NCBI GenBank assembly: GCA_048569615.1
Contig: JBLIRK010000001.1
Span: forward strand, 18,896 to 82,895
DNA length: 64,000 nt
DNA from: Thermoplasmatota archaeon
GTDB taxonomy: Archaea > Thermoplasmatota > Penumbrarchaeia > Penumbrarchaeales > Penumbrarchaeaceae
Direction of reading: 5' to 3'
The translations under genes and the position numbers were made by a program. Positions 43,672 through 45,867 of this stretch are shown one piece after another (the stretch's first letter is position 1; each line of letters starts with the position of its first letter). Under the pieces are notes generated by a model. That model was not told the DNA's origin, ran no database searches, and was given only the letters and a program-made list of their open reading frames with translations.

Positions 43672-45867
43672 CTATTCCTCCTTGAGGTCTATCGGTTTGT
43701 AGATCAGTTCAACTGCTCCGGTACCCAGGGTAATGGGCTGTCCAATGATGATGTTCTCCGCCACACCAGCAAGGGGCTCCACCTCGCCTGTTGTTCCAGC
43801 TGTCAGCAGATGATTGGAAGTTATCTCGAAGGCAGCCCTGGCAAGCACCGATGATTTCTCGCCTGACACGCCATGCCTTCCGATGGCCCTTATGGTGCCT
43901 CCAACGGCCATCACATCGGCGACGAGCATGAGATGCCTTGAGTCCACCGTGAGGCCCTGCTCGGAGAGCGTCTTCCTCGATTCCTCGAAAATGGCCCTCC
44001 TTGCGGCCTCAACACCCAGAACATCTGCTATCTCGATGATATTGTTGGTCGTGGTTCTGGAGACATCGACTTCGCTCAGTTCCAGGATCCTCTTCAGGTC
44101 CGAACCCTCGGTGTACAAAACGTACTCATCCCCTTCATGGCGGATGATCACCCTGCTTATGTCGTCTATTCCTCTTATCTTGACCTTCTTTATGGACTCC
44201 CACTGGTTGAGGAGTACTTTGAAGTTCATTTTCTTCTGTCCCATGAAGTTTATTTGGAACCGCTCGCCGTCATCCTCGATCTGTGTGTCCTTGATCTTCT
44301 TGTTGGTCTCTTTTATTCGTTTTATGAGCTCCGCCCGGGTCACGTTCCTCTTGGCCATCACCTTCTCCCTTGGTACTATGGCGACGGACATCCTGGCAAG
44401 GTCCACCTCGGTGTCCGCAACATCGGATACCAGCGTAAGCTCGATATTGTTGTTGACGAACTCCTTGATGTCCTCGAGGCCTAGTTCCGGATCCCTCTTC
44501 AGATGTATCTCCATCATCGGTGTGGAGGGCAGTTTCCTTGCATCCACGATCTCGATCAACCTCGGGAGACCCAGAGTAACATTAATCTCCGCCACACCGG
44601 CATAGTGGAATGTCCTCATTGTCATCTGCGTACCGGGCTCACCTATGGACTGGGCTGCTACTATACCCACCGATTCGTGGGGATCAACGAGATGTCTCTG
44701 GTATTGCTCGTACGCGAGCTCGCATATTCTGGGCAGTGCCTTATCGGGTACGTCCTTCTTGGCAAGGGCCTGTGATAGATCGAAGATCATTTTTGGCGGC
44801 AGGAGCTCGTCCTCGGAGCTCCTCAATCTCCGGAACTCGGTAAGAACCGGTATGATGCGGGATACAACTTCCCTTACTGAGTCCTCGGTCCATCCCTCCC
44901 TGATACCTTTCTCGCTGAGGAAATATCTCATATCATGGGGAAGCTCCGCCTTGACCTCCTCGCTGACCTTCTTAACCATGTCCTCCAGCAGCGGTTTGAA
45001 CTGCTCTACCAGTATCTCCTTGACCGTTGGCTTCTTGGGCTTCTCCTCCTTCTCCTCTGGTTCGGGTTCCGGAGGCTCCTCCTCCTTTTTAAGGAGCTCC
45101 TCGAATTCCTCTATCCAGATCAAGGTATACTGCCTGGCGCTCTTGACCGGAGTTCCGACAACGGTGGTGAACGAGCGAAGAGGCAGGATCTGGGGAAGAT
45201 CGGTTATCTCCTCCAGTGTCAGGTACGCAAGCGTCTTGTCCGAGGGAACCGACTCCAGGAGGCTTCCGGGGACGAGGTCCTTCTCCTCCGGTAGGGGCAG
45301 AGGGTCCTTGCTAGTCTCTATCTGGGAGATCTTGACCTTGTAGGCAACTGCTTCGGATTTTACATAGATGAATCCCTCGATCGGCAGGGTGAACCTCTTA
45401 AGATTTACATAGAACTTGCATGGCCAAAGGACCTTTTCATTCTCCTTGATCATCCCTTTGGCCTGCTCGACCGATTGCCTATCTGGGGCGGTCCAAATGA
45501 AACCCATCTCCCTCTCCTCCTTCTTCTTCTTGGGAGCTTCCGGCTTCTTTTCCTCCGGGGATTCCTTCTTCTCTTCCTTCTTCCTGAGTGCCTCTTCCAC
45601 CTTTAGGTCCGTCTCCTTCTCTACAGGAGCTTCAACCTGGGCTCCGGAATCCTGATAATCCACCCATGCGAAGGCCCTCTTGAACCTCTTTCCCGAAATA
45701 CCGGAGATCCTTTCCAGCTGGGCAGGCCCCATCTCCAGGACATCCTTCACTGAAAACTCCGAATCCGGTCCAAGCAGCTTGAAAACCGATTCCTCGGGCA
45801 GGTCCCTCGATAGCAGGAAATGCAGCAGGTCCTTCTTGTCCCTTATCACTGTCTCCTTGCTGACCAT
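43672..45867 (-). CDS. rpoA2: DNA-directed RNA polymerase subunit A'' (Rpo1C) carrying an unusual ~330-aa N-terminal extension (HhH-like motif, Lys/Glu-rich linker, unknown domain)
   Basis: Canonical A'' core ..[45 protein letters not shown].. from about aa 390. The 731 aa total contrasts with the usual ~390 aa. ORF abuts the rpoA' stop. Confidence 0.85.

Follow-up and report, generated by a model that had tools for sequence, protein, structure and literature searches.

A predicted HhH-like and PUA-like extension at the N-terminus of RNA polymerase subunit A'' in Thermoplasmatota

The rpoA'' locus

We analyzed a window of 64,000 nucleotides from a Thermoplasmatota archaeon (contig JBLIRK010000001.1). 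The RNA polymerase (RNAP) genes in this window follow the usual archaeal arrangement, rpoH-rpoB-rpoA'-rpoA''-L30e. The product of rpoA'' is 731 aa long, compared to the usual size of about 370-400 aa. The features of the gene, all on the reverse strand, are listed below.

43672..45867 (-): rpoA'' ORF, 731 aa; stop codon at 43672-43674
43675..44802 (-): RpoA''/Rpo1C core with the trigger-loop motif, residues 356-731 (TIGR02389, Pfam RNA_pol_Rpb1_5)
44803..45012 (-): connector, residues 286-355, predicted to be helical (…VEQFKPL…YFLSEKG…), which joins the canonical A'' N-terminus (AF2 helices)
45013..45081 (-): linker 2, residues 263-285, acidic and composed of Glu/Pro/Lys (pLDDT <50)
45082..45513 (-): M-domain, residues 119-262, predicted PUA-like beta-barrel (ASCH/EVE/YTH fold group), with clade-invariant motifs including PVKSARQYT
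45514..45657 (-): linker 1, residues 71-118, Lys/Glu/Pro-rich, predicted disordered (AF2 pLDDT 31-41)
45658..45867 (-): N-domain, residues 1-70, predicted five-helix HhH-like domain of the (HhH)2 type (AF2 model, Pfam match of a relative, hhalign)
45865..45867 (-): ATG start of rpoA'', directly 3' of the rpoA' stop TAA
45874..45881 (-): putative Shine-Dalgarno motif GGGAGGTG for rpoA'', read from the sequence, within the last rpoA' codons (…R E V Q stop)

The curated equivalog model TIGR02389 matched the product with 460.6 bits (cut-off 420.65), with residues 356-723 aligned to model positions 2-366 of 367. Pfam RNA_pol_Rpb1_5 matched the same core with an E value of 1.4e-51. Judged by these profiles, the product is a genuine TIGR02389 member carrying an extra module: it is like canonical archaeal A''/Rpo1C in its full core, its trigger loop, and its operon, but about twice the usual length. 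Because the curated A'' model matches residues 356-723 only, we treat everything before the model start, 355 residues in all, as an extension (window positions 44803-45867), which consists of five parts. An earlier note on this DNA had placed the extension at about 330 aa (44850-45867). The extension is real, and the TIGR02389 boundary makes it slightly longer than proposed. Pfam and NCBIfam profiles had no matches to residues 1-355.

The model for intein-bearing A'' (NF011491) was rejected, as it reached 383 bits against a cut-off of 783 in core segments only, and no Hint, endonuclease, or intein domains were found. Inteins likewise lengthen A''; the extension described here, however, is N-terminal and not inserted.

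Translation start

The TAA of rpoA' (45868-45870) abuts the ATG of rpoA'' with zero spacer (junction TAA/ATG); the ATG begins on the next base. In the window and in related loci, the rpoA' stop and the first ATG are directly adjacent or overlap, and GGGAGGTG or a one-base variant is found at equal distance 5' of this ATG, with few exceptions, in the related loci that include the junction. Of 20 aligned relatives, 19 keep the first Met. The annotation deposited as MFW3145228.1 is identical to the full 731-aa product.

Two internal Met residues were considered as alternative starts. M121 does not vary within the clade, which leaves some room for a shorter isoform; upstream of it, the window has a purine-rich stretch with GGAGG. 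M360, the Met nearest to the canonical A'' N-terminus, is Met in 15 of 21 sequences and Val or Ile in the other six. A conserved Shine-Dalgarno motif before M121 or M360 was not found across the clade. Annotated or gene-called starts of A'' in close relatives scatter, giving products of 390-588 aa; these starts fall inside a conserved folded domain (MLWPCKF…) and disagree between near-identical genes.

No interruption separates extension from core in the window or in any of the 20 related loci (single ORFs of 712-771 aa where complete). We consider extension and core to be one protein because of the TAA/ATG junction, the conserved Shine-Dalgarno motif, the single ORF, the variability of M360, the low dN/dS values reported below, and the annotation. 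At the level of sequence, these comparisons establish that rpoA'' is translated from the ATG abutting the rpoA' stop as a single 731-aa protein. The single ORF in 21 loci and the conserved start signal led us to reject the insertion of a separate gene as well as a frameshift artefact, and the suggestion of a true fusion made from the window alone is supported.

Domain organization of the extension

A first AF2 model of the whole extension, built from six sequences, had a pLDDT of 62.8 and gave weak Foldseek matches only. It was replaced by a model of the M-domain only, which had a pLDDT of 94. The strings quoted in the earlier note were all found, at residues 51-66 (HhH-like), 95-117 (linker), and 165-191 (domain), and its second acidic/Lys linker corresponds to the stretch at residues 263-285.

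The N-domain is predicted to contain five helices (residues 11-20, 25-32, 40-45, 48-55, and 59-66; AF2 pLDDT ~85). Pfam HHH_5 matched the window N-domain with 13.8 bits (E 0.085), below the 27-bit cut-off, whereas the equivalent domain of a relative (P0093) was matched above this cut-off with 29.7 bits (E 9.4e-7). In an hhalign comparison, the family of the window N-domain matched the 'MAKKDTI…' N-domain family with an E value of 6.9e-5 and a probability of 63%. Foldseek hits to the N-terminal domain of RAD51 and to RuvA were weak (probability ~0.25), and weak SAM-domain matches also turn up. The hairpins are degenerate or atypical (RDL, GISG), and the net charge of the window N-domain is 0. 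The HhH identity suggested earlier is thus weakly supported in the window itself; at the family level, the profile match of the relative and the five-helix model support it.

The model of the M-domain has a PUA-like pseudo-barrel fold. The domain of about 200 aa described as unknown in the earlier note does exist, but is compact (~145 aa, residues 119-262) and is predicted to belong to the ASCH/EVE/YTH fold group. The two closest folds were AF2351 and ZmASCH, neither of which is, to our knowledge, an established modification reader. Readers of modified bases were also among the closest folds: YTH (m6A), THYN1 and the McrB N-terminal domain (5mC), and VcaM4I and PD-T4-3 (5hmC). The sequence identity to PUA-like binders (ZmASCH, AF2351, THYN1, YTHDC1, CPSF30-YTH, McrB N-terminal domains, and VcaM4I-type enzymes) is 8-16%, with no profile match at threshold.

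The window M-domain had no match to the EVE (PF01878), YTH, and ASCH profiles at family threshold; among 30 relatives, two to three gave EVE or PF24405 'Pua-like' matches, none of which reached threshold (best E 1.4e-4). Searching PDB sequences with the M-domain profile returned nothing relevant, and PADLOC and NCBIfam had no matches to the M-domain itself. The hallmark motif of ASCH domains is GxKxxExR; by inspection, it is absent from the M-domain family consensus, which keeps aromatic residues (W, W/F, Y, Y). As far as these profile searches extend, the M-domain sequence family is covered by no curated model. The family is basic overall (median net charge +3.5, pI ~9), unlike the window M-domain, whose net charge is -1 to -3. 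In one protein (P0021) the M-domain is fused to a PLD nuclease resembling DrmC and type IV methyl-directed restriction enzymes. The genomic neighborhood of M-domain proteins that stand alone or are fused to PLD gave no information, as these are located on short contigs or next to small unknown ORFs.

Linker 1 varies in length (the spacing between N-domain and M-domain motifs is 78-145 residues among relatives) and evolves fast (dN/dS 0.33-0.37 or saturated). The length of linker 2 is conserved: in 21 of 21 sequences, 260-264 residues separate the M-domain motif from the GEPGTQ motif. Helices in the connector are predicted at residues 295-304, 319-323, and 328-344 (pLDDT 54-71); the connector has dN/dS values of 0.12-0.48 and can be aligned to the corresponding segment in other extended A'' proteins. 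The dN/dS values for both extension domains are 0.03-0.13 (N-domain 0.04-0.13), compared to 0.03-0.06 in the A'' core. Residues 1-355 are, on this sequence comparison, a conserved add-on under purifying selection and no chance ORF.

Distribution among archaea

The family was revealed by an exhaustive HMMER search and a genome scan. A word-index protein search with the whole extension found five relatives only, and one with a diverse M-domain alignment found a single relative; the sensitivity of this method was limited by low-complexity linker words and divergence. In the genome scan, 20 species-level Thermoplasmatota MAGs, including class EX4484-6, hold the whole arrangement in one ORF. The A'' of one related metagenomic contig (L003) is broken.

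The HhH domain alone heads most neighboring Thermoplasmata and Methanomassiliicoccales A'' proteins. The A'' of other lineages, Marine Group III included, carries the PUA-like domain once or twice, together with further bona fide HhH domains at the A'' N-terminus (P0014, HHH_5, E 9.4e-8). The extension had been proposed to be lineage-specific. The whole arrangement is conserved in a group of Thermoplasmatota, and the HhH and PUA-like parts extend beyond any one narrow lineage.

Although the relatives have the extension, it does not appear to be a well-known feature: no description of an HhH or PUA/EVE extension of Rpo1C/A'' was found in the searchable literature on Thermoplasmatota/EX4484-6, Methanomassiliicoccales genomics, the EVE census, the RNAP insertion-domain survey, and the archaeal fusion census. 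The survey of RNAP insertion domains gives Rpo1C only the N-terminal, archaea-wide beta'-aD3 and does not list the A'' extension (PMC11515920). The EVE census reports no EVE-type domain fused to an RNAP core subunit (PMC7641849).

A possible role for the extension

The explanation that we favor, with somewhat better than even confidence, is that of a single 731-aa protein whose selected add-on would serve RNA polymerase as a built-in, tethered module for nucleic-acid binding. Contacts to the DNA backbone, independent of sequence, would be made by the HhH domain, and the PUA-like domain may recognize a particular feature of a nucleic acid, for instance a flipped or modified base or a stretch of single strand. 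Through the flexible linkers, both domains would be able to reach DNA or nascent RNA near the enzyme. By homology to Rpb1, we take the A'/A'' junction to be exposed at the surface of the enzyme, within the foot/shelf region under the downstream-DNA channel; downstream DNA would therefore be the most accessible target. The module would act in cis, in the manner of the bacterial alpha-CTD or Sulfolobales Rpo13, as an extra lineage-specific contact that tunes initiation or elongation.

Binding of nucleic acids is the most likely role that we infer for the extension. The fusion of the M-domain to a PLD nuclease, the extra HhH domains in other lineages, and the basic charge of the family point toward it; the near-neutral or acidic domains of the window, the HHH_5 score below threshold, and the lack of EVE, YTH, or ASCH membership point against it.

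A sharper version of this explanation has the PUA-like domain keep an EVE/YTH-type pocket that reads modified bases in DNA (5mC, 4mC, 6mA) or in nascent RNA (m6A, ac4C). Transcription would thereby be linked to the state of modification, e.g. in self/foreign discrimination or co-transcriptional RNA handling. The modified-base readers among the closest folds, the fusion to a type-IV-like PLD nuclease, and the conserved aromatic residues speak for such a reader, but no EVE or YTH sequence match was above threshold, and the top two fold matches are not established modification readers; we regard this version as unlikely. Slightly less probable in our estimate is that the extension binds no nucleic acid and instead recruits transcription or RNA-processing factors, or drives RNAP oligomerization or condensation via its polyampholyte linkers. 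Five-helix HhH/SAM-like domains can make protein contacts, in keeping with the weak SAM-domain matches, the linkers are long and charged, and the window domains are near neutral or acidic; the structural neighbors and fusion partners, however, indicate nucleic acids, and the family as a whole is basic.

That the locus yields two products, with translation initiating within the ORF close to residue 121 or residue 360 to give a canonical or shortened A'', and the upstream part being made as a protein of its own or a minor isoform or remaining largely untranslated, seems very improbable. The scattered starts in relatives, the invariant M121 with its GGAGG-containing stretch in the window, and the frequent Met at position 360 would fit such a scheme. 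However, the annotated starts cut a conserved folded domain and are inconsistent among near-identical genes, and a Shine-Dalgarno motif is conserved at the first ATG in nearly every locus, but not before M121 or M360. Furthermore, the frame is open and selected through all 355 codons in 21 genomes, the spacing from M-domain to core is fixed, and in one sequence residue 360 is Ile, which is unusable as a start. The internal-start check raised by the earlier note thus came out in favor of the first ATG. A chimeric contig or a frameshift joining an unrelated gene to rpoA'' would find an echo in the broken A'' of contig L003, but 20 MAGs, assembled independently in different studies, and further lineages show the same architecture, which leaves this reading a negligible probability.

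Relation to known systems

Archaeal RNAP is usually seen as a uniform Pol II-like core with its diversity in small extra subunits. The Thermoplasmatota contradict this view, with a tethered HhH-like domain on A'' in much of the sampled phylum and predicted PUA-like additions in several lineages. The bacterial alpha-CTD is a small HhH-type domain on a flexible linker that binds promoter DNA and activators. The N-domain and linker 1 would follow the same logic; the alpha-CTD, however, is part of a different subunit, is located at the opposite terminus, and has no sequence match to the A'' N-domain. Should the module bind DNA or RNA, it would represent an archaeal counterpart of the alpha-CTD and offer a concrete handle on transcription regulation in these uncultured archaea.

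The PUA-like fold is a hallmark of modified-base and RNA readers. We know of no earlier case of a reader-type domain on a catalytic RNAP subunit, and the extension would be the first if it binds DNA or RNA. More speculatively, several Thermoplasmatota lineages, including relatives of Ca. Penumbrarchaeia (EX4484-6) as well as Marine Group III, may have built a modified-base reader into the catalytic subunit, with transcription sensing the modification of template DNA or nascent RNA in cis. We hold this to be doubtful; if true, the reader on RNAP would be a hard-wired prokaryotic counterpart of YTHDC1 and CPSF30-YTH, or would discriminate self from foreign DNA at transcription.

In the Sulfolobales, archaeal RNAP has gained a lineage-specific component, Rpo13. 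It consists of a small helical core of DNA-binding type with charged, flexible tails, and has been proposed to touch DNA in the vicinity of Rpo5 and the clamp head (PMC2675907). Rpo13 forms a 13th subunit of its own and has an HTH motif, whereas the A'' extension is covalently fused and includes a predicted PUA-like domain. In bacteria, the large catalytic subunits beta and beta' have accreted insertion domains (SI3, BEAN, and HABAS) lineage by lineage (PMC11515920). The A'' extension resembles these in domain accretion; they differ in being insertions of other folds in bacteria.

The extension is partly hidden in databases because gene callers shorten rpoA'' inconsistently, and the resulting starts can distort rpoA''-based phylogenies and orthology tables.

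Locus and gene boundaries

The RNA polymerase genes of the window form an operon on the minus strand, in which the ATG of the 731-aa rpoA'' ORF directly abuts the TAA stop codon of rpoA'.

52350-52425, minus strand: tRNA
52030-52281, minus strand: rpoH
48540-51953, minus strand: rpoB
45868-48579, minus strand: rpoA' (mechanical ORF)
43672-45867, minus strand: rpoA'' ORF, 731 aa

L30e, ftsZ, a secE-like gene, and spt5 follow downstream on the same strand. The deposited annotation (MFW3145228.1, on a 181-kb contig of a 'Thermoplasmatota archaeon' MAG) is the exact 731-aa product, and the strings quoted in the earlier note were all found in the A'' sequence. 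Pfam RNA_pol_Rpb1_5 matched residues 348-673 (E 1.4e-51), and the curated A'' equivalog model TIGR02389 (367 positions) matched residues 356-723 with 460.6 bits (cut-off 420.65). The first 355 residues, encoded at 44803-45867 and hereafter called the extension, had no match in Pfam or NCBIfam.

The extension is translated as part of one protein

A genome scan found the extension in 20 species-level MAGs, all labelled Thermoplasmatota, Thermoplasmatales, or Thermoplasmata, two of them as ex4484_6 or EX4484-6. The class EX4484-6 was recently named Ca. Penumbrarchaeia (PMC12220078). In all 20 MAGs a single open frame contains both the extension and the A'' core with its GEPGTQ motif, and the complete A'' genes encode 712-771 aa from the first Met.

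In the related loci, rpoA'' begins with an ATG that adjoins the rpoA' stop or overlaps with it. Nearly every locus with the junction present has GGGAGGTG, or a variant differing by one base, 6-9 nt upstream of this ATG; this Shine-Dalgarno motif sits within the conserved last codons of rpoA'. The earlier note left room for an internal start that creates two proteins; across the loci of the clade (the window A'' and its 20 relatives), no conserved Shine-Dalgarno motif was found upstream of the internal Mets. M360 is the Met nearest to the canonical N-terminus; 15 of the 21 sequences keep it and the other six have Val or Ile. M297 and M313 are not conserved in the clade alignment. Because of the conserved motif at the first ATG, its absence at the internal Mets, and the variability of M360, M297, and M313, the comparison favours translation from the first ATG. 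M121 is invariant (21/21), and sits where the folded M-domain has its first strand. The PUA-like domain begins with this residue (E-M-G-F-I-W; window 45865-45507); other lineages have Gly, Ala, or Ile there.

Close relatives have A'' genes annotated or called at 390, 435, 467, 514, or 588 aa; inconsistent, shortened starts occur at L001 5554-7767, L002 5557-7767, L017 (ex4484_6), and in proteins P0003, P0004, and P0055-P0058. These could be taken as a sign of two products. However, the DNA of the shortened ORFs reads open back to the rpoA' stop (737, 736, and 723 aa), and the 588-aa start (MLWPCKF…) lies within the folded M-domain, where the window has Val-Leu and no start codon. The shorter starts are gene-calling choices and do not speak for two products. 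With one open frame throughout and a Shine-Dalgarno motif at the first ATG, the genuine fusion proposed in the earlier note is upheld. In the JGI contig Ga0451568_422287 (L003 203-2304), A'' is split into ORFs of 386 and 314 aa and lacks about 26 residues, the trigger-loop region included; an assembly error or a pseudogene is the probable explanation.

In close pairs, dN/dS was 0.03-0.06 for the A'' core, 0.04-0.13 for the N-domain, 0.03-0.13 for the M-domain, and 0.33-0.37 or saturated for linker 1, the pattern expected if two folded functional domains are joined by a disordered spacer.

Domains of the extension

The alignment of relatives and the first AlphaFold model divided the extension into five parts.

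Parts of the A'' extension
1-70: N-domain; five helices, pLDDT ~85
71-118: linker 1; Lys/Glu/Pro-rich, pLDDT 31-41
119-262: M-domain; holds PVKSARQYT and a clade-invariant 12-residue motif
263-285: linker 2; acidic, fixed length
286-355: helical connector; runs into the canonical A'' N-terminus

Linker 1 is highly variable in length among relatives (motif-to-motif spacing 78-145 residues); between the M-domain motif and GEPGTQ, all 21 sequences have a distance of 260-264 residues.

The earlier note described an HhH-like motif at the N-terminus. The window N-domain itself matched HHH_5 weakly (E 0.085), but equivalent domains of relatives matched with E-values of 9.4e-7 (29.7 bits, above the gathering cut-off), 7e-4, and 1.3e-3. 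In hhalign, the clade N-domain was linked to the relatives' N-domain family (E 6.9e-5, probability 63%), and its HMM recovers 10 members of that family. The HhH call has more support from the family than from the window's own match.

Fold comparison of the M-domain
AF2351 (2kku): 10.7
Zymomonas ASCH: 9.7
YTHDC1: 8.6
CPSF30-YTH: 8.1
THYN1 EVE with bound 5mC DNA: 7.4
Thermococcus McrB N-domain with bound m5C DNA: 6.4
TRIP4/ASC-1: 6.2
VcaM4I: 6.0

All of the top 50 Foldseek matches fell into the same PUA-like group (probability ~0.9-1.0, TM ~0.5). Assignment of the modelled M-domain to the PUA-like superfamily by fold is therefore solid. Membership in the EVE, YTH, or ASCH sequence families is unsupported: the window M-domain had no Pfam match, PF24405 ('Pua-like') or EVE was touched by 2-3 of 30 relatives and always below threshold, a profile search against PDB sequences found nothing, and the ASCH motif GxKxxExR is not in the family consensus. 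By sequence, the M-domain is a separate family inside the superfamily, and no curated model covers it.

Occurrence outside the clade

Searched exhaustively with HMMER, 1.84 billion representatives yielded 29 proteins with E below 1e-3, at least 12 of which are other long A'' proteins (666-912 aa). In these lineages an HhH-type N-domain ('MAKKDTI.AL..RG…') is followed by one or two tandem M-domains, and canonical cores begin at residues 391, 475, and 483. In the loci that were read, the long A'' gene likewise begins on the rpoA' stop, within an rpoH-B-A'-A''-L30e operon. Two tandem PUA-like copies occur in P0007, P0008, P0009, P0011, P0014, and P0016 (787-912 aa). P0014 has a further bona fide HhH domain ahead of the core (HHH_5, E 9.4e-8), and P0020 probably also carries one between the PUA-like copies and the core. 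One long-A'' lineage corresponds to a cluster with 144 members at 90% identity; the genes that neighbour it group with proteins of Ca. Poseidoniia and Marine Group III. In the lineage whose A'' reaches 912 aa (P0007), an Arf/Ras/Roc-type small GTPase gene (L026 11198-12028) adjoins the RNAP-L30e operon.

Of the 118 homologues nearest to the window A'' core, 77 carry an extension of 95-170 aa, which begins with an HhH-type N-domain and has no M-domain; this set includes MAGs named Methanomassiliicoccales and Thermoplasmata. Given these and the long A'' of other lineages, a tethered HhH on A'' is common in the Thermoplasmatota relatives that were sampled, and several lineages have gained the PUA-like domain in addition.

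The M-domain also occurs in stand-alone proteins of 140-161 aa and at the C-terminus of a PLD-family nuclease (P0021, 398 aa; L028 352-1548). The N-terminus of this nuclease matched PLDc_2 and RE_NgoFVII_N (~2e-7), PADLOC DrmC (4.5e-12), and 'type IV methyl-directed restriction enzyme' (5.5e-10). P0021 is a candidate new family of modification-dependent restriction enzymes; P0027 and P0028 are apparently shorter relatives of it.

Possible function and novelty

We hold the structural description of A'' (fusion, domains, linkers, and folds) with high confidence. HhH domains contact the DNA backbone irrespective of sequence, and PUA-like domains of the ASCH/EVE/YTH group bind RNA or DNA, typically via a flipped or modified base. 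HhH domains recur with the M-domain on the same A'' terminus, and the M-domain is fused to a restriction-type nuclease; on this basis we lean, by a modest degree, towards the extension being a tethered nucleic-acid-binding module. A specific modified-base-reading role of the PUA-like domain is improbable by comparison. Going by homology with Rpb1, the A'/A'' junction presumably sits on the surface of the polymerase, in the foot/shelf region under the channel for downstream DNA; with linkers of 50-100 residues, the domains would reach downstream DNA most easily. The window's own N- and M-domains are not basic; the family has a median net charge of +3.5 and a pI of ~9. The bacterial alpha-CTD and Sulfolobales Rpo13 (PMC2675907) are the nearest functional counterparts of the extension.

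The earlier note had considered that the extension might be a well-known feature of close relatives. Relatives share it, but full-text literature searches turned up no account of Rpo1C/A'' with an HhH or PUA-like extension, and it is unmentioned in the EX4484-6 paper, the EVE census, the comparative genomics of Methanomassiliicoccales, the survey of RNAP insertion domains, and the archaeal fusion census. Large RNAP subunits are known to accrete domains, and HhH tethers on RNAP are also known in kind; the A'' extension is a variant on these, built around a PUA-like sequence family that has no curated model.

Other features of the locus

Archaea usually have nusA-S12-S7 after rpoA''-L30e. At window 41224-43660 (minus strand) and in L001-L003 these genes are absent, and L30e is followed by ftsZ, the secE-like gene, and spt5/nusG, an order kept in related contigs. 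The mechanical rpoA' ORF begins at a GTG overlapping the end of rpoB (window 48532-48579, minus strand). Because rpoA' of relatives begins MMVSYQY or MVSYQY, the real start is probably the ATG ~15 codons downstream, and A' would then have ~887-888 aa. A very acidic 550-aa protein (window 39474-41126, minus strand) resembles a surface protein, having a hydrophobic segment at its N-terminus and, at its C-terminus, a transmembrane anchor that precedes RRRKRAK.
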